The translations under genes were made by a program, and so were the position numbers. From the IMG/VR virus record IMGVR_UViG_3300022555_000024, positions 48,340-112,339 of that record: 64,000 nucleotides of DNA; one strand, given 5' to 3'. The DNA comes from a virus. Below the pieces are notes generated by a model, which worked only from the letters and a program-made list of their open reading frames with translations, was not told where the DNA came from and did not search any database. The number at the start of each line of letters is the position of its first letter. The stretch's first letter is position 1. Positions 5,211 to 64,000 of the stretch are shown here, piece after piece.

Positions 5211-5240
5211 AATGGCCCTGGTGAATTCACCAGGGCCATT
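5211..5240. terminator. perfect 30-bp GC-rich palindrome, probable terminator
   Basis: AATGGCCCTGGTGAA/TTCACCAGGGCCATT, intergenic, followed by T-rich sequence. Confidence 0.7.
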
Positions 5241-5317
5241 GTTGTTTATTAAATAAGTCTCCGATATATCATAAATAAGTTTATAAACCTCTCTTTTTAT
5301 AAATATTCTTATGATAA

Positions 5318-5710: not shown

Positions 5711-6858
5711 CAATAAATTTCAAAAATGTCTGGGAAACTATAGACAAAAAGGCATCTGAACCTTTACAAGAACTTTTTATAAGACCAGATGGAGATTTGG
5801 AACAGGGAGCAGCAGAAGTTGCATCAGATATAGCAGTTCTTTTTGTAAGAACAATAAGTCCTTACATCTCTAATTTAATGACGAAGAGAAGAGTTAAAAG
5901 AGAAGAAATACAGAAAGCTCATACAATATTAACAGGAGCAGAGGAACAAATAGCTACCATTATAAACAAAAGTGTTCAAGATAGATATCAACATCAGTGC
6001 GATGTGTGGGAAACTGAACTAGAAAAACTCGAAAGAAATTTAAAAGAAAGTAAAGATGTAGATACCCTTATTGGTAATATTACAGAATCTTTAAAAAAGG
6101 GATCTGAATATAGAACATTCTTTAAGAATGCGCTAAAAAAATTCGGTGTTGAATCACAAGATGAATTAACAGGAGATAAAAAGAAAAAATTCTTTGATTA
6201 TGTTGATTCTAATTGGGAATCTGATGACGAAATCGAAGAATCGATTTCAGAGGAATCGTTAGATGAATTATTTATGACTCCCGAAAACAAGAAAGAAGAA
6301 TTAGTTGCAGATGCTGCTATATTTTTAGTTAGAGTTGTTGGACCATATATTAGTAAATTGATTAAAGAATTTAATGAAAGACGTTGTGTTGAAAAGAAAG
6401 AATTGATTACTGCTACTAGATATCTTAATAAAGCAGAACATGAAATAGAACTGATTAAAGAACCCGCTACACAACTCGTTTTTAAGAAAATTCTATCTAA
6501 ATGGTGGTCTCAAATCAAAAAATTCAAAAATTGTGGAATTAACGAAGAATCTGGCACAGCATCTAAAGAATTTGTTGACTCAGAGGTCGAAGGACTTACA
6601 GGCGGTGCAAAAAAGGCATACGATATGGGCTTAAACCATGGTATGAATAATAGAAAACCATTAGATAGTCCTGACGCTTCATTTGGTAGATTTGGCGATC
6701 ACTATACGTATGGTTATAATGTTGGTAAGAATCATAGAAAAATAGATTCTGATGGTGTAGAATGGCACAATAAGCAGAAAGGTAGAGTAAACTCATCTTA
6801 TAGACCACTTCAACATGAGAGTGTTGATATTATAAAATCAAAGAAGAATTCTAACTAA
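5707..6858 (+). CDS. modular protein with internal duplication, possible internal head protein
   Basis: Two copies of ELF...A.D.A...VR...PYIS.L...RR; modules separated by I/L-x-E-[ES] motifs. Confidence 0.6.
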   Translation: MTINFKNVWETIDKKASEPLQELFIRPDGDLEQGAAEVASDIAVLFVRTISPYISNLMTKRRVKREEIQKAHTILTGAEEQIATIINKSVQDRYQHQCDVWETELEKLERNLKESKDVDTLIGNITESLKKGSEYRTFFKNALKKFGVESQDELTGDKKKKFFDYVDSNWESDDEIEESISEESLDELFMTPENKKEELVADAAIFLVRVVGPYISKLIKEFNERRCVEKKELITATRYLNKAEHEIELIKEPATQLVFKKILSKWWSQIKKFKNCGINEESGTASKEFVDSEVEGLTGGAKKAYDMGLNHGMNNRKPLDSPDASFGRFGDHYTYGYNVGKNHRKIDSDGVEWHNKQKGRVNSSYRPLQHESVDIIKSKKNSN

Positions 6859-7694
6859 TGACTCAGTTTTTATTTGAAGGGAAATACTGGGATTTGCTAT
6901 ATGCATATCAATTTATTAAACGTCTTGTTATTCCATTTGATAAAACAGACGCATTTAAACTTGGTATTATAGATAAATATGGCAATAATTTAATTCCTAG
7001 AAAAGATTTCACAACAGATGAGCAAAAAAATGCATATACCTATTTTACAGTGATGGTATTTAACTTAAAGAAACTTTTAGGTAAACTTCCTGCGGGCAAA
7101 ACGATGATGGCTTCTTTAATTGCAGCATTGCTTTTACTTAAAGAGGAAAAGAATAGAACTTTTCATATAGAACAAGAAAATGATGAAAAACTTCTTATAG
7201 AAAAATATAAACAAATATACGATAAAGTTCATTCATCTAATACAAATTTCATACCAATATTAACAGAGATTCATTGTCTCATTAAAGAAGATAAAATGAT
7301 AAATGAAGAAGTAACTGGAGATCTGCCTACGTTACAAATACCAACTTCAACTGTTGGTGCATTAAGAAGAAAACAGAAAAAGGATGCTATGATTAGAAGA
7401 GCTCCAGTTGTTTATGCAATACCAGAAGGCAATGGAGTCGAATCACATGGTGATTTTAAAGTTTTCACTGTTGATACCCCAACATTTATAGAAGCAAAGT
7501 CTGCAAAGAATAGATATAACAAATATGATAAATATGTAGGAAGAGCTGAGTTGGGAGAACAAATTAGATCATATGCAATTAGTAACCCAAACATGCCAGT
7601 TATCTTGAAGTGTGAGACTACAGGTCAAATATGTTTTTTAAAATATGGTAAAGTATCATTAGATTCTATAACAGAATTTAAAAATAAAAAATGA
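6858..7694 (+). CDS. conserved T4-like hypothetical protein
   Basis: YAYQFIKRLVIPFDKTDAFKLGIIDKYGN...NLKKLL N-terminal domain. Confidence 0.7.
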   Translation: MTQFLFEGKYWDLLYAYQFIKRLVIPFDKTDAFKLGIIDKYGNNLIPRKDFTTDEQKNAYTYFTVMVFNLKKLLGKLPAGKTMMASLIAALLLLKEEKNRTFHIEQENDEKLLIEKYKQIYDKVHSSNTNFIPILTEIHCLIKEDKMINEEVTGDLPTLQIPTSTVGALRRKQKKDAMIRRAPVVYAIPEGNGVESHGDFKVFTVDTPTFIEAKSAKNRYNKYDKYVGRAELGEQIRSYAISNPNMPVILKCETTGQICFLKYGKVSLDSITEFKNKK

Positions 7695-8827
7695 AATCAT
7701 TTAAGACATACATAACAGAGAAGAAGGACCACCTGATAGATAAGCTAGCGATTACCGATCACCAAAAGAAGGAACTTAAGGATTTTTTTGCAAAGAAACC
7801 AAACCTAGAGAACAAGATTGACTGGCAAAAGAAGGGTCTTGCCTTTAAGGATTTTGCGGATGTCATGGCCACGACGAAGACCGAAAGAACCAGGATGGTA
7901 AAGAAGCAGGGCATCGCCGGGCTCAAAGATGGCAAGGATTATCTTGAACTAAAGGTACCTGCAGATTTTCCATTCCAGGCCTACATCCCACTTACCTGGG
8001 AAGCTAGCAAACTAATCGCATCAAACAAGATAGGTAAAGGTACTGCCAAGTGGTGCACTGCCCATCATAGCTTATATAAACATTGGTATGAATATGCAGA
8101 TAATCTAGATGTTCTCATTTATCTCATAGGAAAAGATACCAAAATAGCAATGGTACTAGATGGTAATTATATAGATGATGTTTATGATATAGAAGACAAT
8201 ACTATTGAGATTGAAGCCGAATATCGTATTCTAGTGGATATCAACAAATCTTTAATAAATAAAGCCAGAGGTATTATAGAGAAAGGTTTAAAGGACAGAG
8301 TTTGGGATGGAGGCACGTGGCTAGGCGGCACTTGGACTGGTAGATTATGGAAAGGCGGAAACTGGAAAGATGGCAACTGGAAAGATGGAACATGGGAAGC
8401 CGGCAGTTGGGACCATGGAACATGGGAAGGTGGAATTTGGGAAGGCGGACTTTGGAGAAACGGCACCTGGGAAAAGGGTATTTGGCAAAACGGAATTTGG
8501 AAAGATGGCAACTGGAAAGGCGGCACTTGGAAAAACGGTGTCTGGGAAGGCGGAACCTGGCAATACGGGCTTTGGCGAAATGGCATCTGGAAAGGAGGTG
8601 ATTGGTGGGACGGCACTTGGTGGAACGGCACTTGGGAAGCAGGCACCTGGCAAGGCGGTACTTGGCAAGCAGGCACCTGGCAAGGCGGTACCTGGGAAGC
8701 CGGCCTCTGGGAACGCGGAGATTGGTTGGGTGGAACTTGGAAAGGCGGAGATTGGTGGGGTGGTTATGATATAAATGGCAATTATCATGAAATGGGTGAT
8801 TCACCAGATAAATGGAAACTAAAATGA
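7691..8827 (+). CDS. GxWxx-repeat family protein 1 (CTS + WCT domain + Trp pentapeptide repeats)
   Basis: MKSFKTYITE start, GTAKWCTAHH domain, about 30 GxWxx repeats, GGYD..GNYH..GDSPDKWKLK cap. Confidence 0.9.
   Translation: MKSFKTYITEKKDHLIDKLAITDHQKKELKDFFAKKPNLENKIDWQKKGLAFKDFADVMATTKTERTRMVKKQGIAGLKDGKDYLELKVPADFPFQAYIPLTWEASKLIASNKIGKGTAKWCTAHHSLYKHWYEYADNLDVLIYLIGKDTKIAMVLDGNYIDDVYDIEDNTIEIEAEYRILVDINKSLINKARGIIEKGLKDRVWDGGTWLGGTWTGRLWKGGNWKDGNWKDGTWEAGSWDHGTWEGGIWEGGLWRNGTWEKGIWQNGIWKDGNWKGGTWKNGVWEGGTWQYGLWRNGIWKGGDWWDGTWWNGTWEAGTWQGGTWQAGTWQGGTWEAGLWERGDWLGGTWKGGDWWGGYDINGNYHEMGDSPDKWKLK
8303..8763 (+). repeat. 15-nt imperfect tandem coding repeat (GGN-NNN-TGG-NNN-NNN)
   Basis: TGG every 15 nt. 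Confidence 0.9.
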
Positions 8828-9396
8828 AATCATTCAAGACATTTATAATAGAATCAAAAATAAGAAAAAGTTACTTCGATTCATCCATTCCAGTTGTCAT
8901 TCTTTATAAAACAGACGAGGAATATAACATTTGGGAACCGCGTTTTAAGAAATATGGATGGGCAATAGGTATCCTAGATAAGAAAATTATTATAGAAGAT
9001 GGCGAGATTATAAAAAATTTAACAAAAACACAAATCTTATTTGTAGAATCTCATGAATGTTCTCATTTTATACTTGGGGAAAAAGCTACAGAAGTAGAAT
9101 GTGATTGGCTTGCTATAGCAAATCTTTGGAAAAAAGGATTTAAAAACGCAGCAAAATTAGGAATAGACACCTTTGAGGAAAGAAATAATGTACTATTTGA
9201 TACTTCAGATCTTCCGGGTTATGATTCTTGGATAAAAAGAAATAAACATTTGGGCGAATGCTTTATTTTAGAATGCAAAGAAAAAAATATAGAGATATTA
9301 AAAGCTTTAAAGAATTCACAAAAATTTAATATTTACCCATCAAAAAGCACTTTAGAAAGTGCTTGGGAAATATACACAGAATCTATTATACATTAA
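8824..9396 (+). CDS. CTS-bearing putative zinc metallopeptidase
   Basis: MKSFKTFIIE start; HECSH (HExxH) followed by EVECD. Confidence 0.65.
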   Translation: MKSFKTFIIESKIRKSYFDSSIPVVILYKTDEEYNIWEPRFKKYGWAIGILDKKIIIEDGEIIKNLTKTQILFVESHECSHFILGEKATEVECDWLAIANLWKKGFKNAAKLGIDTFEERNNVLFDTSDLPGYDSWIKRNKHLGECFILECKEKNIEILKALKNSQKFNIYPSKSTLESAWEIYTESIIH

Positions 9397-10322: not shown

Positions 10323-10597
10323 AAACGTATAAAGAATTTCGTACAGAAATAGGGTCTAAAACTTGGGACGATATTGCTGAAAATCCTAAATTAGTAGGAC
10401 ATATTCCTAGTAATATAAATAAAGAAATTTTAGATGATCCTAAAGATAGAAAATATTTGAAGTCTATTGGAAAAGCAAGGTTAAAGAAAGCAGAAGATCA
10501 ATGGAAAAAGATTATAGATGATCCAGAAGAAGTAGGTAGTATTCCAAGTAACTATCCTGGGAAATTTAAAGGTGGTAATTTTGCAAACACAATTTGA
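10319..10597 (+). CDS. small CTS-bearing protein with internal duplication
   Basis: MKTYKEFRTE start; W..I...P..VG.IPSN occurs twice. Confidence 0.7.
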   Translation: MKTYKEFRTEIGSKTWDDIAENPKLVGHIPSNINKEILDDPKDRKYLKSIGKARLKKAEDQWKKIIDDPEEVGSIPSNYPGKFKGGNFANTI

Positions 10598-11718
10598 TGA
10601 AATCATTCAAGACATACATAACGGAGAAGAAGGACCATCTTATAGATAAGCTAGCGATTACCGATCACCAGAAGAAGGAATTGAAGTCGTTTTTTGCAAA
10701 GAAGCCAAACCTAGAGAACAAGATTGACTGGCAAAAGAAGGGCCTGGCATTTGCCGATTTTGCAGATGTCATGGCCACGACGAAGACCGAAAGAACTAGG
10801 ATGGTAAAGAAGCAGGGTATTGCCGGGCTCAAAGATGGCAAGGATTATCTTGAATTGAAGTCACCTGCAGATTTTCCATTCCATGCCTACATCCCACTTA
10901 CCTGGGAAGCTAGCAAACTAATCGCATCAAACAAGATAGGTAACGGAACAGCCAAGTGGTGCACAGCACACCACAGCTTATATAAACATTGGTATGAATA
11001 TGCCGAGAATTTTCGTGTTCTCATTTATCTCATAGGAAAAGATACCAAAATAGCAATGGTACTAGATGGTAATTATATAGATGATGTTTATGATATAGAA
11101 GACAATATCACCACGGTTAAACCAGAATACCATACCCTAGTGGATATCAACAAATCTTTAATAAATAAAGCCAGGGGTATTATAGAGAAAGGTTTAAAGG
11201 ACAGAGTTTGGGATGGAGGCACGTGGCTAGGCGGCACTTGGACTGGTAGATTATGGAAAGATGGAACATGGTATCGCGGAACCTGGGAAGCCGGAATTTG
11301 GAAAGATGGAATTTGGAAAGACGGAATTTGGAAAGACGGAATTTGGAAAGATGGAACATGGGAAGCCGGCCTCTGGGAACGCGGAGATTGGTTGGGTGGA
11401 ACTTGGAAAGGCGGAGTCTGGGAAGATGGTGTTTGGGCCAGAGGTAGATGGGAAAGTGGTATTTGGCGAGGCGGCACTTGGGAAGACGGTCATTGGTATA
11501 GTGGCACTTGGATTAGTGGCACTTGGTTGGACGGCACTTGGGACGGCGGAACCTGGCGAAATGGCAACTGGAAAGGAGGTGATTGGTGGGACGGCACTTG
11601 GGAACGCGGTACCTGGAGAGGTGGCACTTGGTTAGGCGGCACCTGGTATGGTGGTTATGACATAGATGGCAATTATCATGTAGCGGGCGATTCACCAGAT
11701 AAATGGAAACTAAAATGA
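10597..11718 (+). CDS. GxWxx-repeat family protein 3
   Basis: Near-identical N-domain to 7691..8827; about 30 repeats in a different order. Confidence 0.9.
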   Translation: MKSFKTYITEKKDHLIDKLAITDHQKKELKSFFAKKPNLENKIDWQKKGLAFADFADVMATTKTERTRMVKKQGIAGLKDGKDYLELKSPADFPFHAYIPLTWEASKLIASNKIGNGTAKWCTAHHSLYKHWYEYAENFRVLIYLIGKDTKIAMVLDGNYIDDVYDIEDNITTVKPEYHTLVDINKSLINKARGIIEKGLKDRVWDGGTWLGGTWTGRLWKDGTWYRGTWEAGIWKDGIWKDGIWKDGIWKDGTWEAGLWERGDWLGGTWKGGVWEDGVWARGRWESGIWRGGTWEDGHWYSGTWISGTWLDGTWDGGTWRNGNWKGGDWWDGTWERGTWRGGTWLGGTWYGGYDIDGNYHVAGDSPDKWKLK

Positions 11719-12403
11719 AATCATTCAAGACGTGCATAACGGAGAAGAAGGATCACCTGATAGATAAATTGAAAATGACTGATTTTGAAAAAGCACAATT
11801 AAAAGACTTTTTCAAAAGGAAACCAAACCTAGAAAACAAGATTGACTGGCAAAAGAAAGATCTGGCCTTTAAGGATTTTGCGGATGTCATGTCCACAACG
11901 AAGACCGAAAGAACCAGGGCAGTCAGGAAGTCTGGCATCACAGGTCTCAAGAAAGGCATAGACTATCTAGAGGTCAAAACTCCAGCAGATTCGCCGTTCC
12001 AGGCCTACATCCCACTTACCTGGAAGCTAGCAAACTAATTGCATCCAACAAGATAGGACCCTGTACAGGTGAATGGTGCATATCTCATCATAGTGAAAAC
12101 AATGATTGGAATGTATATACAAAAGAAGGAGATGTATTTATTATGCTTATAGGACAAAGAACAAAATTAGCAATAAAAATAAATAAAAAAGATGTATTTC
12201 ATGTCTGGGATAGTGATGATAATCACTTAATTAAACATAATAGAGTTTGGGACTCAAACATATTTGGTGATAGTGCTGGTCATCATTTAGATATAGATAA
12301 ATTAATATCGGATAATAAGAATATTATAGATAATGCAAGAAAAATTGTAACACCTCAGATTAGAACAACTCCGATAAGAATTACACCTTATTTTGAGATA
12401 TAA
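11715..12403 (+). pseudogene. WCT-domain family member without Trp repeats; 1-nt frameshift at about 12021
   Basis: acctggaagct versus acctgggaagct in paralogues; adding one G reads TWEASKLIASNKIGPCTGEWCISHH and joins ORF 12143..12403; may be a sequencing error. Confidence 0.75.
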
Positions 12404-12692
12404 CGAAGATAGTACTATCAATGAAGTAGATTATCCACGTGCAATAGAAGAATGTATAGATCTCGGCTTGGGTTGGAGATTACCTACATATGATGAACTT
12501 AATAAATTGCGTTTGATATATCAAAATACCGATATTGTTGATAATTTTGATTTGCATCCATATGGTTTGTATTGGTCTTCGTCTTATGATAATAAAAGAC
12601 AATCTGTTAGATGTATTATAATGCGGGGTGTAGTTGAATGGTCTAATATAACAATGGGTTTAGCTAGAGTAAGAGCAGTAAGAAGTGTCTAA
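12393..12692 (+). CDS. DUF1566/Lcl-C-like domain protein
   Basis: GWRLPTYDEL...YWSSS...ARVRAVR. Confidence 0.7.
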   Translation: MRYNEDSTINEVDYPRAIEECIDLGLGWRLPTYDELNKLRLIYQNTDIVDNFDLHPYGLYWSSSYDNKRQSVRCIIMRGVVEWSNITMGLARVRAVRSV

Positions 12693-18357: not shown

Positions 18358-18430
18358 GGCCTTATAGCTCAACTGGTTAGAGCAGTAGACTGTCGATCTA
18401 CAGGTTTGGAGTTCGATTCTCCTAAGGTCG
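18358..18430 (+). tRNA. tRNA-Asp (GTC)
   Basis: GGCCTTA/TAAGGTC-G; GCTC/GAGC D stem; GTAGA-CTGTCGA-TCTAC anticodon arm; 4-bp T stem. Confidence 0.85.
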
Positions 18431-18585
18431 CTAATAAATCCCTCCATCAAACATCTCAATTATCGAGAGAGTTAATGTTATTCAAAATTTTATAATTTCA
18501 AGTTTATTCAAGTAATAAAATTATTTTTACTTTTAAAGAAAAATGGTTATATTATACTATATGAATAACTAAACAATATTATATT

Positions 18586-57228: not shown

Positions 57229-59368
57229 TATACATAATTTTAAGTCTAATTGCAATCGTATTATTTCTTTTTTTAGTTCCTGATTTATTATCATATAGGT
57301 TTTATGGTTATTCCAAGGAAAAAATTGAAGAATTTTCTAAAAAAGATCTTTCTAACTATAACATTTATCTTTCTTCGAATAATTCTAATAAATTTTGGAT
57401 TTTATCCGATGCAGAATGCGAAGATTTTATTAGTGATAATGGAGGTTTTGCTAGCAAATATCACTCTCATAAATATGGTTTAATCCCTAGATCACATCCT
57501 ATGACAAAAAAGATTGATGAAATTTTAGCCGATATAAGGAAACAACCTGGAACTCCTTTAACATCAATTTTAAATGAGCAGAATTCCATAGAATAAGTTA
57601 AATTTATTATCTGATTTTTTTGATAAAGAGACTGGAAAATGATAGTGATGAAAAAAATAATCATAACAAATGAGACTGAGCTTAGTGATATAAAATCCTT
57701 AGAACTTGCTTCTTACTCTATAAAAAGCAGTTCATCTGTTGTACATAATTATGGTGGCTCTTTGCATGGAATTAGAGTGGACACCGAGTTCAATCAGCGT
57801 AGAAAAACTATAAAATGCAGGATTAGCAAAGAAGAAGTTGATTAACACAATACCAAACAATTAACATCAATGACACCTGAACAATTCAAAAAAGCAGTGT
57901 GGACAGAAAAGACACAAGTAACGCGCCATTCAGTACCGGGAAAGTTTTTTCCGTTAAATGTGGATTTTGAGCGTTATGAAGTGTTGCTTGACGATGGTGA
58001 CATCGTGAGACCAGAACACATTGAATCCATCATAAACCAACCTGATTACGATGCAATAATTGCTGACCTAAAAGAAGATTTATCTGAAGTATTGCAAGAT
58101 GTGATATGCTTTGCACCTGAATGCACATCATCAAAAGAGTATGCAATCAAACGATTAAAGGAACTTGAAGATGAAAGTGCACCACAAACCGGTATCGGGG
58201 GGAAATTATAAATAAGTAACAAGAAAAGATACAAAAGAGTTAAATTAGTAATAAACATAATTATGAAGTCGAATTTAAAGACCTCTGCTGAATGGAATGA
58301 TCTTTTTAGAGATTATTTTACAATAGAAAAAGAAGAGGCGTATGGTTGGAACAAAAGAAATTTCAATTATGCATGGAATAAAGAAAAGATACATATTAAT
58401 GAATTTCTTAGTCGAATGAAAAATTCTACTTGTTATTGGAAGAAAAGTTGGAATGAAGTTTCAAACGTGATAGAATACGTTAGAGAATCCTATAATTTAA
58501 GATAAAACACACAGATGGAAAAATTAGAATATTTTTTTGAAGATCATCAACACCCAGATGAAAAATTTGATATGCCCGATTTTGATAATTATACACCAAC
58601 ACCCTATTCGTCATTTGATTTTTCTATAGCATCTGTTAGAGTAGAAACTGACGATGAAGATTTTGGATTTTGTATAGAAATACTTCCTATAGAATTTAAT
58701 TCTGATAAATTTTATTATGGAGGTTCTCTTCTTTCTATAAGAAAATATTATGATGCACCTATTCAATTTGACATTATTTATTTGGGTCAACTTTTTAATA
58801 AAATCAAAAGAAAGTTATATAAACAGGTAACTCCATTTTAACTATGTCTGCAGATAATAGAATATTAGTAGTTAGGTTTAAAGATTGTACAAAATTCAAA
58901 TGCATTGGTGGAGATAAATTGTATGATCATTTTGAACCTAATATGGAAGGAATAAATTATGCATATCTTTATATAGAATTAAAATCTGAATATTCATTTG
59001 AAGATTACCGCAAAGCTTTAGAACTAGCAGGAGTTTTGAATGATGAATTAGAAACTGAATATGGAGTAAACACCTTAGAATTTGATAATACATGGGATGA
59101 GTTTAAACGTTTAGCGGTCGATAAAGCAACACGAGAATTGTTGTGGTTACAAGGAGAAATTGGGGAGAGAAGTTCTGCATGGATATGGGATCAAACACAA
59201 ATTTCAGATTTATCTATGCTTGTTCAAAATGCATATTAATTACTATTTAAGTAAATTAGTTTCTTAAATGATGAAAAGGCAACTACAGAAATGTGGTTGC
59301 CTTTTCCAATTAGAATGTTTTTTATTATAAATAGTAAAAACAATATCAATAAAATTAAAATTAAATAA

Positions 59369-60430
59369 ATGATATCATTTAAATCATTCATAACGGAAGC
59401 ATCGTATAAAGGACTTACACTCCCTGCTTTAGAGAAAGCCACGTCAGAAGCACTTAACTCTAAGTATATAACAAACCCAGATTATAATCAGTTAAAAAGT
59501 GCTATAAATTATATTATAGAAAAGGCTGCAAGAGATGTTGATAAAGTTTGGGATTCGTTGCGTAGATCCGTACCCGAATACTTAAAGCATACAAAGACTA
59601 ACAGTTTAACAGATTACGATAATTTTAATCTTCTTTCAGATTTATTTAGCATTTTTATGAGTGCAAATGATGTATTGTTTCTAAAAAAGAAGATTGAAAA
59701 GGCTAAAAGTGCTTGGGGCCCTAAAGATCAAGCTATTATTATTGCAGAAAAGTTCTATGAAGAATATTATCAAGTTTCTCAGAATCTGAAAGATTTAAAG
59801 CAATATATTGTTAAAGTAACTGTAATACGAGCAGAAAAGAAAGCATCGCAAGCTATAGAATTAAAACAAAAATTTACAGATTCTAGGACACTTATAGATG
59901 TTTTAGAAACATACAAAGAAGAATATAAGAAAAAAGCTGGGGAATTTGCAAATGACAGATACGAGTTTTTTATGAACAATCTTAAAGAGTATGGATGGGA
60001 TATAAATAAAACGGCCCCAGAACCTTCTATTAATAGCTATAATTATAGAGAAGCTAGAGAGAAAAGAACTACTCTTTTAGCAATAACTGACGATAAAGAA
60101 CCAAACAACACAGACAAATTATTAAGCACTGGTAAATTTGGATCTGGACCTCAAATACTTAGAAAACCTTCCATAATAAAGAAGAAAAAATTTGTAAAAT
60201 TAGAGATAGAAGCTGCTGGCAATAGTTATGACAATTGGGTAGGAAAGATGGTTGTTAAGATAGGTAAACCCGTTACCCAAGCAACATTCATAGGAGATCC
60301 ATGGAGAGGTTCTAATTTGAAAGTAACAACATCAGATGGGGAAATTCAGGAGTGGAAGACCAAAGTGATCATTAATTATTCTAAATATGGAACGGCATTT
60401 CATCAATTCCCAAGTCATAAACTAAAATGA
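59369..60430 (+). CDS. CTS-bearing protein, first gene of second array
   Basis: MISFKSFITEA start; TATAAATA at 59326; C-terminal N.SKYG..F.QFP. Confidence 0.75.
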   Translation: MISFKSFITEASYKGLTLPALEKATSEALNSKYITNPDYNQLKSAINYIIEKAARDVDKVWDSLRRSVPEYLKHTKTNSLTDYDNFNLLSDLFSIFMSANDVLFLKKKIEKAKSAWGPKDQAIIIAEKFYEEYYQVSQNLKDLKQYIVKVTVIRAEKKASQAIELKQKFTDSRTLIDVLETYKEEYKKKAGEFANDRYEFFMNNLKEYGWDINKTAPEPSINSYNYREAREKRTTLLAITDDKEPNNTDKLLSTGKFGSGPQILRKPSIIKKKKFVKLEIEAAGNSYDNWVGKMVVKIGKPVTQATFIGDPWRGSNLKVTTSDGEIQEWKTKVIINYSKYGTAFHQFPSHKLK

Positions 60431-61758
60431 AATCATTTAAGACATACATAACAGAGAAGAAGGATCACCTGATCGATAAGCTAGCGATTACTGATTCCCA
60501 GAAGAAGGAACTCAAGGATTTTTTTGCAAAGAAGCCAAACCTAGAGAACAAGATTGACTGGCAAAAGAAGGGCCTGGCATTTGCCGATTTTGCAGATGTC
60601 ATGGCCACGACGAAGACCGAAAGAACCAGGGCAGTCAGGAAATCTGGCATAACCGGACTCAAAGATGGCAAGGATTATCTTGAATTGAAGTCACCTGCAG
60701 ATTTTCCATTCCAGGCCTACATCCCTCTCACCTGGGAAGCTAGCAAACTAATAGCATCCAACAAGATAGGTAAAGGTACTGCCAAGTGGTGCACAGCCCA
60801 CCACAGCTTAGATCAACACTGGTACGAATATGCAGAGAATTTTTATGTTCTCATTTATCTCATAGGAAAAGATACTAAAATAGCCATATTACTAGATAGT
60901 AGGAATCATATAGAAGAAGTAAGAGATATAGAAGATAATATCACCAAGGTTAAACCAGAATACCGTACCCTAGTGGATATTAACAAGTCTTTAATAAATA
61001 AAGCCAGAGGCATTATAGGGAAAGGTTTAGAGGGCCTTGTTTGGGATGGAGGTACCTGGGAACGCGGAGATTGGTTGGGTGGAACTTGGAAAGGTGGCAT
61101 TTGGGAAGATGGTGTTTGGGCCAGAGGTAGATGGGAAAGTGGTATTTGGCGAGGCGGTACTTGGAAAGATGGCAACTGGAAAGATGGAACATGGTTAGGT
61201 GGAACATGGGAAGACGGAATCTGGAAAGATGGCAACTGGAAAGATGGAACATGGGAAGCCGGCCTCTGGGAACGCGGAGATTGGTTGGGTGGAACTTGGA
61301 AAGGCGGAGTCTGGGAAGATGGTGTTTGGGCCAGAGGTAGATGGGAAAGTGGTATTTGGCGAGGCGGCACTTGGGAAAACGGCACCTGGCAAGGCAGTAC
61401 TTGGTATAGAGGAACTTGGAAAGGCGGAACTTGGAAAGGCGGAAATTGGTGTGCAGGAATTTGGAAAGATGGAACATGGGAAACCGGCCTCTGGGAACGC
61501 GGAGATTGGTTGGGTGGAACTTGGAAAGGTGGCATCTGGGAAGATGGTGTTTGGGCCAGAGGTAGATGGGAAAGTGGTATTTGGCGAGGCGGCACTTGGG
61601 AAAACGGCACCTGGCAAGGCGGTACTTGGGGAGGTGGCACTTGGGAAAACGGCACTTGGTTAAGTGGAACTTGGAAAGGCGGAACTTGGAGAGGTGGTTA
61701 TGACATAGATGGCAATTATCATGTAGCGGGTGATTCACCGGATAAATGGAAAAAATGA
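60427..61758 (+). CDS. GxWxx-repeat family protein 4 (about 44 repeats)
   Basis: Same N-domain and cap; block WERGDWLGGTWKGG.WEDGVWARGRWESGIWRGGTW occurs three times. Confidence 0.9.
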   Translation: MKSFKTYITEKKDHLIDKLAITDSQKKELKDFFAKKPNLENKIDWQKKGLAFADFADVMATTKTERTRAVRKSGITGLKDGKDYLELKSPADFPFQAYIPLTWEASKLIASNKIGKGTAKWCTAHHSLDQHWYEYAENFYVLIYLIGKDTKIAILLDSRNHIEEVRDIEDNITKVKPEYRTLVDINKSLINKARGIIGKGLEGLVWDGGTWERGDWLGGTWKGGIWEDGVWARGRWESGIWRGGTWKDGNWKDGTWLGGTWEDGIWKDGNWKDGTWEAGLWERGDWLGGTWKGGVWEDGVWARGRWESGIWRGGTWENGTWQGSTWYRGTWKGGTWKGGNWCAGIWKDGTWETGLWERGDWLGGTWKGGIWEDGVWARGRWESGIWRGGTWENGTWQGGTWGGGTWENGTWLSGTWKGGTWRGGYDIDGNYHVAGDSPDKWKK

Positions 61759-62894
61759 AATCATTCAAAACATACATAACGGAGAAGAAGGATCACCTGA
61801 TAGATAAATTGAAAATGACTGATTTTGAAAAAGCACAATTAAAAGACTTTTTCAAAAGGAAACCGAACCTAGAAAACAAGATTGACTGGCAAAAGAAGGG
61901 TCTTGCCTTTAAGGATTTTGCAGATGTCATGGCCACGACGAAGACCGAAAGAACCCGGGCAGTCAGGAAGTCTGGTATTGCCGGGCTCAAAGATGGCAAG
62001 GATTATCTTGAACTGAAGGTACCTGCAGATTTTCCATTCCAGGCCTACATCCCACTTACCTGGGAAGCTAGCAAACTAATAGCGTCAAATAAGATAGGGC
62101 ATGGTACTGCCAAGTGGTGCACAGCACACCACAGCTTAGATAAACTTTGGTATAAATATGCCGAGAATTTTTACGTTCTTATTTATCTGATAGGAAAAGA
62201 TACCAAAATAGCTATATTACTAAATTCTGGTAATAAAATAGAAAAGGTTTATGATATAGAAGACAATATCACCACGGTTAAACCAGAATACTTTACCCTA
62301 GTGGATATTAACAAGTCTTTAATAAATAAAGCCAGGATTATTATAAAGGAAATATTAAAGGACCTTGTTTGGGATGGCGGCAAATGGGAAGGCGGAACAT
62401 GGACTGGTAGATTATGGAAAAACGGAGTCTGGGAAGGCGGCACTTGGGAAGACGGTGATTGGTATAGTGGCACTTGGATTAGTGGCACTTGGAAAGGTGG
62501 AACATGGTTTGACGGTATCTGGAACGGCGGCATCTGGAAAGGAGGTGATTGGTGGGACGGCACTTGGGAAAACGGCACTTGGCATGGCGGTACTTGGCAA
62601 GCAGGCACCTGGAAAGGCGGAACTTGGAAAGGCGGAAATTGGTGGGCAGGAACCTGGTTTGACGGTATTTGGGAAAATGGTACTTGGTGGGCAGGAATTT
62701 GGAGTTCAGGGATCTGGAAACTTGGCACGTGGCTAGGCGGCACTTGGGAAAATGGTACTTGGAAAGGCGGAACTTGGAAAGGCGGAGATTGGTGGGGTGG
62801 CACTTGGTTAGGCGGCACCTGGTATGGTGGTTATGATATAAATGGCAATTATCATGAAATGGGTGATTCACCAGATAAATGGAAACTAAAATGA
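61755..62894 (+). CDS. GxWxx-repeat family protein 5
   Basis: N-terminus like 11715, middle and cap like 7691. Confidence 0.9.
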   Translation: MKSFKTYITEKKDHLIDKLKMTDFEKAQLKDFFKRKPNLENKIDWQKKGLAFKDFADVMATTKTERTRAVRKSGIAGLKDGKDYLELKVPADFPFQAYIPLTWEASKLIASNKIGHGTAKWCTAHHSLDKLWYKYAENFYVLIYLIGKDTKIAILLNSGNKIEKVYDIEDNITTVKPEYFTLVDINKSLINKARIIIKEILKDLVWDGGKWEGGTWTGRLWKNGVWEGGTWEDGDWYSGTWISGTWKGGTWFDGIWNGGIWKGGDWWDGTWENGTWHGGTWQAGTWKGGTWKGGNWWAGTWFDGIWENGTWWAGIWSSGIWKLGTWLGGTWENGTWKGGTWKGGDWWGGTWLGGTWYGGYDINGNYHEMGDSPDKWKLK

Positions 62895-63331
62895 AATCAT
62901 TCAAGACTTACATGACTGAATTGTTTGATTTTCCTATAGATTTCAAACATGCAGGGCTTCGAGGATATCCTCATATATACGAATTTACAATAAGTGATTA
63001 TACCTATACTGCAGGATTCACGCAACCTTACGATGAACGTTGGAATATAGGTTTTGCAATGACAAAATTTAGAGGACAAAAATGCTATTTAGAAGGAATA
63101 ACAGGTGTCGGACCTGGTATTGCAATAAGGGTTCTTTCTACAATAGTAAAAATAGCGATAGATTTTGCTAAGAAAAACAATCCAGAAGTTATTACATTTA
63201 CCGCCGATAAAAAGGATGGTAAAAGATCTATTCTATACAATCAAATATTAAAAAGAAATATTACAAGCGAATACAAATATATTACAACTGATGAAGGAGA
63301 TAAAATTAGATTTACAATAGTACGAAAATGA
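62891..63331 (+). CDS. CTS-bearing ITELFD-family protein
   Basis: MKSFKTYMTELFD; paralogue of 63328 and 14564. Confidence 0.75.
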   Translation: MKSFKTYMTELFDFPIDFKHAGLRGYPHIYEFTISDYTYTAGFTQPYDERWNIGFAMTKFRGQKCYLEGITGVGPGIAIRVLSTIVKIAIDFAKKNNPEVITFTADKKDGKRSILYNQILKRNITSEYKYITTDEGDKIRFTIVRK

Positions 63332-63771
63332 AATATTATAAAGAATTTATAACAGAATTATTTGATAAAGCCGTTCCGTATAAATTGATATCTAGGAATA
63401 AATGGCATAGAGAGTATATATTTGAAATAAATGAAGTTAAATATGAATGTGATTTTTATTATAATGAAGATGACGATATTTGGGCTTTGTCATTTAGTAA
63501 TATAGATCCTTATACACAAATAACAAACTTTGGAAAAACTAATTATGGTATAGAAATTGCTTCTATCGTATTTACTACTATTTTAAAAATATCTGCAGAT
63601 TTTATAAAAGAAACAATTCCTAGATGTATAAAATTTAATGCAGATAAGAGTTGGGGAATGGGAAGAAGTAGTGTTTACGAAAAGATAGCAAAGAAATTTA
63701 TACCAAATGGATATGAATTGTCTAAAATAGAGCAACATGATGAAACAACGTTTAAAATAACGGAGAAATGA
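63328..63771 (+). CDS. CTS-bearing ITELFD-family protein
   Basis: MKYYKEFITELFD. Confidence 0.75.
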   Translation: MKYYKEFITELFDKAVPYKLISRNKWHREYIFEINEVKYECDFYYNEDDDIWALSFSNIDPYTQITNFGKTNYGIEIASIVFTTILKISADFIKETIPRCIKFNADKSWGMGRSSVYEKIAKKFIPNGYELSKIEQHDETTFKITEK

Positions 63772-64000
63772 AATCATTCAAGACATACATAACAGAGAAG
63801 AAGGATCACCTGATCGATAAGCTAGCGATTACTGATTCCCAGAAGAAGGAACTCAAGTCGTTTTTTAGCAAGAAGCCGAATCTAGAGAATAAGATTGACT
63901 AGCAAAAGAAGGGCCTGGCATTTGCCGATTTTGCAGATGTCATGGCCACGACGAAGACCGAAAGAACCAGGGCAGTCAGGAAATCTGGCATAACCGGACT
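63768..64000 (+). pseudogene. further WCT-domain family copy (partial) with TGG>TAG at 63900
   Basis: Near-identical to the start of 60427; in-frame TAG replaces W45. Confidence 0.75.

Follow-up and report, generated by a model that had tools for sequence, protein, structure and literature searches.

What does it mean when one short sequence stands exactly at the start of several genes, some of which encode unrelated proteins? The question is raised by two gene arrays in the last 64 kb (the window) of a 112,339-bp viral contig from IMG/VR (IMGVR_UViG_3300022555_000024; genome G000 below). The 17-mer ATGAAATCATTYAAGAC opens gene after gene in these arrays, and a first-pass annotation took the junction for a cassette exchange point, at which DNA encoding a packaging signal doubles as a recombination handle. 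The explanation that we favor, with a probability of roughly 65%, is that the 17-mer is the front part of a leader acting as a capsid-targeting sequence (CTS) and propeptide of the phage T4 type, and that its repeats result from paralogy together with two crossovers within the leader.

The 17-mer was scanned across the window with up to 2 mismatches allowed, and the expectation was taken from shuffles. Eight matches were found, all on the + strand of the window, compared to 0.11 ± 0.35 in the shuffles, and each is the start of an open reading frame (ORF). They comprise the seven gene starts already named in the first-pass annotation (7691, 8824, 10597, 11715, 60427, 62891 and 63768) and the copy with one mismatch at 61755. 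Neither the remaining 48 kb of the contig nor the – strand holds an extra copy, so the genome-wide count stays at these eight. MKSFKT, the peptide encoded by the 17-mer, makes up residues 1–6 of the ten-residue leader MKSFKTYITE, and the 17-mer is the longest common stretch of the 30-nt leader. At the peptide level, a scan finds 12 leader-bearing genes in the window (7691, 8824, 9432, 10319, 10597, 11715, 59369, 60427, 61755, 62891, 63328 and 63768), four of which use other codons and residues: MKTYKHLLEE (9432), MKTYKEFRTE (10319), MISFKSFITE (59369) and MKYYKEFITE (63328). Over the whole contig, the leader motif occurs at 15 of 192 ORF starts, a count that misses genes 10319 and 63768, and at 0 of 525 internal methionine positions. 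In total, the contig has approximately 15–17 leader-bearing genes, and the two window arrays account for 12.

Overlap of the gene start with the upstream stop codon, first described for the genes of both arrays, is present in 10 of the 12 leader-bearing genes (nine of the ATGA type and one TGATG, at 10597) and absent from genes 9432 and 59369, which follow a short intergenic gap. ATGA overlaps are frequent throughout the contig: a crude gene set has 22 among 155 junctions, ~9 of them inside the arrays. An in-frame ATG lies three to four codons upstream of the leader at 8812, 11703, 61746 and 62879 (METK-MKSF..., MEK-MKSF...). This extra ATG arises from the ...AAATGGAAA... of the preceding gene, and gene callers may choose it, which would hide the leader. 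The GGAAAC in the same stretch resembles the AGGAAAC ribosome-binding site that precedes T4 ipII and ipIII.

A T4-type CTS and propeptide is the best reading of the leader. When the T4 record is translated, ipII and ipIII both start with MKTYQEFIAE; at the DNA level the two leaders match exactly over 32 nt, and the bodies behind them are unrelated. The first 10 residues of T4 IPIII suffice for packaging, residues 4 and 7 serve in targeting and residues 8 and 10 in processing by gp21, and CTS fusions bring GFP, β-galactosidase and other proteins into heads (PMC9026906). At these mapped positions, all window leaders have an aromatic residue at position 4 and Tyr, Phe, Leu or Cys at position 7. 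All 12 end in x-x-E, with Glu at position 10, and position 8 is Ile, Leu or Met in 11 leaders and Arg in one. The leaders of genes 10319 and 63328 share 7 of 10 residues with the T4 CTS. Metagenomic homologues of the N-domain that marks one paralogue family of the arrays have leaders of varying length, all of which end in [L/I/F]-x-E right before the conserved mature start KKDHLI; that this ending is kept despite the variable length fits constraint by a protease site. Residues 1–9 and 1–11 are disordered in two AlphaFold2 models (the HExxH cargo encoded at 8824 and the N-domain), and the leader is not hydrophobic. The likeness to the T4 CTS, the [L/I/F]-x-E ends and the disorder of the leader in the models are what point to a capsid-targeting propeptide. 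Together with the gp21 and gp23 genes of the contig, the T4 likeness speaks for the first-pass claim that the 17-mer encodes a packaging signal, where packaging itself is predicted from the comparison of sequences.

The contig encodes a Peptidase_S77/gp21-type prohead protease domain (PF03420, 127 bits, E 3e-38) and, as major capsid protein, gp23 (PF07068, 376 bits, E 1e-113). This capsid protein is ~50% identical to those of cyanomyophages and of Pelagibacter phage HTVC008M, a gp61-like primase adjoins array 1, and the contig is 62% complete by the CheckV estimate. The source is a distant, uncultured T4-like phage; DNA searches of phage collections returned a 66-nt primase match only, or nothing. 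The ORF with the gp21 domain, which lies outside the window (genome C1:15928-17256; L001 808-2136), is 442 aa long and has its own leader, MKTFNEFRKE. It includes an additional N-terminal part of ~220 aa, with a second leader-like sequence, MKLLTETFIAE, directly before the protease domain, and small ORFs beside it start with MSYKSLLEE and MKTYKSLLEE. All of these leader-bearing ORFs probably encode proteins of the head core that carry the same address.

Two of the junctions are chimeric. Positions 8759–8840 and 62826–62907 are an exact 82-nt block, consisting of 65 nt of a paralogue 3′-end and the 17-mer, and identity around it is ~70% upstream and ~30%, or random, downstream. The paralogue end in the block encodes ...GGYDINGNYHEMGDSPDKWKLK and its stop codon, and proteins ending ...YHEMGDSPDKWKLK precede both 8824 and 62891. 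These two genes, of 190 and 146 aa, are the only ones with the 17-mer whose bodies are unrelated to the paralogue family, which they match in the leader only. The two observations that first drew attention to the locus, a shared upstream end and 17-mer before unrelated bodies and a loss of identity right after the 17-mer, are confirmed by this block. The first five codons of both genes are the same as those of the paralogue family and include minority codons (contig usage TCA 0.24, TTC 0.18 and AAG 0.28); given the peptide MKSFK, the codons of the 17-mer have P ~0.009 per gene. Past nt 17, the second half of the leader is gene-specific (FIIE, YMTE, YITE), which places the breakpoint inside the leader. 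Each of the three homologues known for the HExxH cargo has a different leader variant of its own, so that a leader-to-leader crossover fits better than the capture of a leaderless gene. The pattern of the paralogue C-cap followed by the 17-mer had no match when it was sought in viral contigs.

For most copies of the 17-mer, the repetition has a simpler origin. Six of the eight (7691, 10597, 11715, 60427, 61755 and 63768) belong to one family, built from an N-domain of ~205 aa and GxW repeats, whose members are 63–88% identical over hundreds of residues and remain similar for ~600 nt or more. Synonymous differences among the paralogue leaders are about as frequent as in the sequence behind them, and for these six copies the 17-mer is part of duplicated genes, which is plain paralogy. 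The N-domain model (AlphaFold2, pLDDT 83) had no PDB match by Foldseek, and single-protein searches of viral contigs for loci related to the 7691, 6858 and 59369 proteins gave nothing. The paralogue at 11715 ends ...IPLTWKLAN after 107 aa and its N-domain goes on out of frame (EASKLIASNKIGPCTGEWCISHH...), where it is more divergent; an ORF at 12393–12692 lies downstream of the paralogue region. It looks like a frameshifted or chimeric copy, resembling an out-of-frame chimeric joint in the conserved IPLTWEASKL stretch. As 33 contigs hold the identical 107-aa product, no one-off error is involved.

If the junction is a point of exchange, relatives should carry different cargo behind it, and this was found in a single divergent relative (L022). 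This locus is ~79% identical in the paralogues and has the same junction of C-cap and leader, with the leader left as an orphan 13-codon ORF (MKSFKTYITENIT and a stop codon). The orphan is followed by a different gene of 193 aa with its own leader, MKNFIKFLLED, and then by another leader and paralogue. The orphan leader is a recombination scar at the leader, with different cargo behind the same junction. A 3.4-kb contig from another metagenome record (L023) matches 60603–64000 at 99.7%, including the 62891 junction, in the same order, so the order seen in array 2 cannot be put down to one assembly alone. Different cargo behind the junction, as expected in the first-pass annotation, is seen in the one relative L022. 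The contrary picture drawn there, in which gene order is fixed and protein constraint explains the junction, agrees with the order in L023 and with the broad conservation of the leader, which is at the protein level, and not with the cargo of L022. At a further locus (L029), what comes after the homologue of the 6858 gene is a different leader-bearing gene, in an array of at least 10 such genes. The G000 contig ends 232 nt into paralogue E (Table 1); L023, which begins within another paralogue, stops at that very base, and L022 also starts within one. Assemblies break in the GxW family, and array 2 probably continues past the window.

Among phages more broadly, the leader is conserved as a peptide. 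In an unbiased scan of IMG/VR for DNA able to encode MK[S/T]FKT[F/Y]IxE, 71 loci were found, and behind their leaders stand at least 34 different downstream sequences, apparently of unrelated proteins. Ser-3 is encoded by TCA, TCG, TCT, AGT or AGC, and it is this synonymous variation across phages that identifies the peptide as the conserved entity. Conservation of the junction as DNA across phages, which the first-pass annotation had suggested checking at synonymous positions, is not upheld, as these sites are free to vary. The situation within single genomes differs. In one other genome (G003), at least nine genes without mutual BLASTP similarity, one of them for a Nudix enzyme, begin with ATGAAATCCTTTAAGCAATACATTACCGAA or close variants. 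Ser-3 is TCC in seven of these genes, a codon that accounts for just 12% of the Ser codons of G003, and exact leader blocks of 32–39 nt, starting precisely at the ATG, are present in three non-homologous genes. Homogenization was tested as the fraction of identical residues encoded by the same codon, against random sets of ten IMG/VR leaders in 5000 draws (0.54 ± 0.05). The G003 leader set has a fraction of 0.73, reached in 4 of the 5000 draws, and the G000 set has 0.60, reached in 560. Leader DNA is clearly homogenized within some genomes (G003, T4 ipII/ipIII), whereas in G000 homogenization is confined to the junctions beside paralogues, and leader conservation there is mainly at the protein level.

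A cytidylyltransferase-like enzyme is among the cargo behind the leaders in IMG/VR, and so is a ligase-like protein that has a KxDG motif. The ligase-like protein, of ~410 aa (KxDG; ...GKNxHxxHxED...), is found with a leader in L014, L077, L151 (4368–5615) and the phage Melnitz. The cytidylyltransferase-like enzyme has a leader in eight contigs; its cyanophage homologues align from residues 9–15 on and may be leaderless. In G003, a leader-bearing ORF of 319 aa (L141, 7935–8894) has a second in-frame leader, MKSFKDFLSE, at 8673, and could represent an in-frame fusion of two cargo units. Among IMG/VR relatives of the N-domain (L145, L146, L147 and L148), every lineage appears to use a leader “dialect” of its own, common to neighboring unrelated genes, such as MNLxEQ[F/Y]KxLxE in L145 and MYNFEKIYEATHLxE in L147 and L148, which suggests co-evolution of the leader with the head core of each phage.

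A mechanism can be proposed from these data. The leader would dock a new protein to the prohead scaffolding core, and the gp21-type prohead protease would cut it off after Ile/Leu-x-Glu, at positions 8–10. The mature protein would then remain in the head and presumably be injected with the DNA. On the DNA side, the leader-bearing family of N-domain and GxW repeats would have expanded to six copies, and the ~30 nt of similar sequence at the start of every cargo gene would act as a patch of microhomology. Recombination in the leader would have put a paralogue 3′-end and the first 17 nt of a neighbor's leader before unrelated cargo at 8824 and 62891; both cargo genes appear to have retained their own leader's 3′-half, as expected of crossovers inside it. 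A leader crossover is always in frame, capsid-addressed and translationally coupled, and such events would for this reason survive selection. The idea of a recombination handle is partly supported: three specific events, together with G003 and T4, speak for it, with breakpoints in or just after the leader in the 82-nt block, L022 and G003, and most 17-mer copies are plain paralogy.

How much of this could be explained with no role of the leader in recombination? Protein constraint and paralogy, by tandem duplication and by duplication from one array to the other, might be all there is, with the two cargo junctions alike by chance or through common leader descent. This account has in its favor that six of the eight copies are paralogues, that their leaders vary synonymously about like the downstream sequence, and that Ser-3 codons are diverse in IMG/VR. 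The G000 leader set is also not significantly homogenized at synonymous sites (0.60 compared to 0.54), which counts against our own explanation as well. We nonetheless consider paralogy by itself unlikely, given that the exact 82-nt block ends abruptly in the leader between flanks of ~70% and ~30% identity, that the codons of the 17-mer are improbable given MKSFK, that L022 has an orphan leader scar, and that G003 and T4 have DNA identity limited to the leader between unrelated genes. Other points weigh against leader crossover and packaging too. Packaging is predicted from similarity to T4 alone, and leader-bounded exchange is seen at two window junctions and in one relative only. The homologues of the HExxH cargo all have a leader of their own, so this cargo was not captured naked. 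The 82-nt block could reflect gene conversion between the arrays instead of cargo exchange, and an exact repeat of this length could let an assembler swap the downstream arms, for which the independent contig covers array 2 only. If assembly had gone wrong altogether, with repeated paralogues giving chimeric joins, the junctions would exist in no real genome. Contig ends and starts within paralogues, as in G000, L023 and L022, are typical of breaks induced by repeats, and an exact repeat of 82 nt can lead a short-k assembler astray. This possibility is nevertheless very remote, as L023 reproduces 3.4 kb of array 2 with the 62891 junction at 99.7%, the identical HExxH protein, 146-aa cargo (62891) and 107-aa protein occur on 82, 99 and 33 contigs, respectively, and an arm swap at the block leaves both junction sequences intact.

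The leader could also be another kind of N-terminal signal. It might, as an A-rich 5′ coding region without structure, enhance the initiation or re-initiation of coupled genes, or it might serve as a signal for secretion or for the membrane. It is A/T-rich and located at ATGA overlaps, where re-initiation matters. An enhancer of this kind sits poorly with conservation of the peptide under free synonymous change and with the leaders of 59369 and 9432, which have no stop/start overlap, and a membrane signal with a leader that is not hydrophobic. The match to the T4 CTS at mapped determinant positions, the [L/I/F]-x-E end of variable-length leaders before a conserved mature N-terminus, and the same motif at the start of ORFs in the head-core module adjoining gp21 make such signals improbable overall. 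Going in the other direction, the CTS-coding leader might be the attachment point of an integron-like, recombinase-free form of capture. A captured ORF would at once be coupled, late-expressed and capsid-addressed, arrays of 6–10 unrelated injected effectors could build up, and leader-to-leader exchange would keep the leader DNA of a genome uniform, in this lineage and G003 and perhaps in Melnitz-like phages. We regard this extension as tentative and rather doubtful. The ORF lists of the arrays show no integrase or attC-like element, although no search aimed at integrons was made.

Pfam and PHROGs gave no informative name for any array protein. The HExxH motif is invariant among four homologues of the 8824 cargo, which has no match in Pfam or PHROGs and none in the PDB by Foldseek. 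Its model is structurally closest to the M48 peptidase BepA (Z 6.0, rmsd 3.6, 104 residues), a match below the trust level of the tool. The peptidase proposed at 8824 is thus backed by a conserved motif and a weak fold match, and a peptidase function of the modeled product is possible. The 63328 protein had no tblastn match among phages. The 62891 and 63328 proteins continue with LFD past the leader (MTE-LFDFPI and ITE-LFDKAV). The N-terminus of T4 Alt, MELITELFDE, agrees with these ITELFD proteins (146 and 147 aa) at 7 of 9 residues (BLASTP E 0.13); homology to it was not accepted, and the match is kept as a lead. A relationship of the ITELFD proteins to the N-terminal region of Alt is possible, or the two may just have a cleavage context in common.

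Table 1. Coordinates of the two arrays and their flanking elements in the window.
Feature	Position	Strand	Remarks
Hairpin, strong, terminator-like	5211–5240		upstream of TATAAATA at 5298
TATAAATA, T4 late-promoter-like	5298..5305	+	13 nt before first gene of array-1 operon
Gene without leader, phrog_18642	6858..7694	+	stop overlaps first 17-mer
Paralogue A, 378 aa	7691..8827	+	MKSFKTYITE, N-domain ~205 aa, GxW repeats, C-cap ...YHEMGDSPDKWKLK
82-nt junction block, copy 1	8759..8840	+	last 65 nt of paralogue A and 17-mer
Cargo gene, 190 aa	8824..9396	+	leader MKSFKTFIIE, conserved HExxH
GxW-repeat protein without N-domain, 296 aa	9432..10322	+	MKTYKHLLEE, different codons
Small cargo gene, 92 aa	10319..10597	+	MKTYKEFRTE, 7/10 identical to T4 CTS
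Paralogue B, 373 aa	10597..11718	+	starts with 17-mer
Shortened paralogue, 107 aa	11715..12038	+	starts with 17-mer; N-domain resumes in other frame ~12020
TATAAATA	59326..59333	+	in 130-nt gap preceding array 2
First gene of array 2, 353 aa, phrog_4687	59369..60430	+	leader MISFKSFITE
Paralogue C, 443 aa	60427..61758	+	starts with 17-mer
Paralogue D, 379 aa	61755..62894	+	17-mer with one mismatch; C-cap identical to that of paralogue A
82-nt junction block, copy 2	62826..62907	+	exact match to 8759–8840
Cargo gene, 146 aa	62891..63331	+	leader MKSFKTYMTE then LFD...; phrog_16075, phrog_6387
Cargo gene, 147 aa	63328..63771	+	MKYYKEFITE; 31%-identical paralogue of 62891 gene
Paralogue E, cut by contig end	63768..64000	+	starts with 17-mer

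The element TATAAATA stands close upstream of the first gene in both operons (Table 1) and is not enriched window-wide (22 found compared to 18 expected). We do not claim a T4-type late promoter here, for which the position alone is suggestive. Within the two arrays, promoter-like sites are not in excess (25 compared to 29.7 expected, and 18 compared to 20.4), nor are terminator-like sites (2 compared to 3.7, and 1 compared to 3.2), with none of the latter between cargo genes. Elsewhere in the window, ARAGORN finds a tmRNA at 706–1072 (tag peptide ADTFEYRMAA before the stop) and a tRNA-Asp at 18358–18431; a tmRNA has also been reported for the cultured T4-like phage Melnitz (PMC9004378).

If the leader works as in T4, it offers a sequence tag by which proteins injected by environmental T4-like phages could be listed. 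Such a list would include the six-copy GxW-repeat family and a possible metallopeptidase and, from other contigs, Nudix, cytidylyltransferase-like and ligase-like enzymes. The picture of hypervariable internal protein (IP) loci would be extended beyond the T-even phages, to coupled operons without promoter/terminator cassettes, and because such cassettes are missing the leader itself becomes the main shared sequence at the cassette borders. The idea of a recombination handle is then testable in cultured relatives such as Melnitz. In this Methylophilales phage (MZ577098, Kyanoviridae), a run of leader-bearing genes lies beside primase and helicase genes, with consecutive gene starts MQGFKTFLSE, LINFSKYITE, MKKFSELTSE and MKKFSEIIEA; the terms “internal protein” and “capsid targeting” are both absent from its genome paper. 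Like the source of our contig, Melnitz is a T4-like marine phage with consecutive leader-bearing genes. Unlike in the window, its cargo consists of a ligase-like protein and a cytidylyltransferase fusion, and the GxW family is not seen in the 12.7-kb stretch examined.

How does the locus compare to better-known systems? The PeSL elements of RB49/phi1-type phages are ~100-bp intergenic units that join an early promoter to a stem-loop and that bring their own transcription signals (PMC2839356). As in the arrays described here, short conserved sequences stand at gene boundaries, and homologous recombination between them inserts, deletes or replaces accessory ORFs with the neighbors left intact (PMC2839356). 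The shared element here differs in being coding sequence inside an operon. A second comparison is with the CTS proteins of T4. Both systems have a leader of ~10 residues at the extreme N-terminus with unrelated bodies behind it and encode a protease of the gp21 family, and in both the leader has aromatic or hydrophobic residues at positions 4 and 7, a mostly aliphatic position 8 and Glu at position 10. The differences lie in number and in cargo, as approximately 15–17 leader genes in the present phage compare to three IPs and Alt in T4, and the cargo includes multi-domain GxW-repeat proteins of 378–443 aa where that of T4 is small and basic; for the present phage, packaging and cleavage are predicted from its genes alone. 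In T4, Ip1, Ip2 and Ip3 are injected anti-defense factors, each of which blocks a different GmrSD enzyme (PMC12373910).

A further parallel is found in the hyperplastic IP loci of T-even phages. In the account of Repoila et al. (1994), as relayed by later papers, recombination at conserved flanks has been proposed to shuffle these genes (Repoila et al., 1994, via PMC2839356, PMC12373910), and the IP ORFs are flanked by promoter and stem-loop elements, thought to be the recombination sites (PMC2839356). Promoter and stem-loop/terminator flanks of this kind were not found in the arrays, where genes overlap stop to start and the shared sequence consists of the leader and the paralogue 3′-ends only. 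A conserved leader, hypervariable cargo and recombination at shared flanks together form an idea that is already known, and the present lineage is a distant new case of the T-even IP type, with operon-like arrays in place of promoter/terminator cassettes. The likeness to T-even IP loci drawn in the first-pass annotation is apt. Two separate loci are present in both, leader-sharing genes vary between related T-even phages (Repoila et al., 1994, as cited in PMC2839356 and PMC12373910) and differ here in the one relative L022, and identical leader DNA heads unrelated genes, over 32 nt in T4 ipII and ipIII and over 17 nt, plus 65 nt upstream, in the arrays described here.

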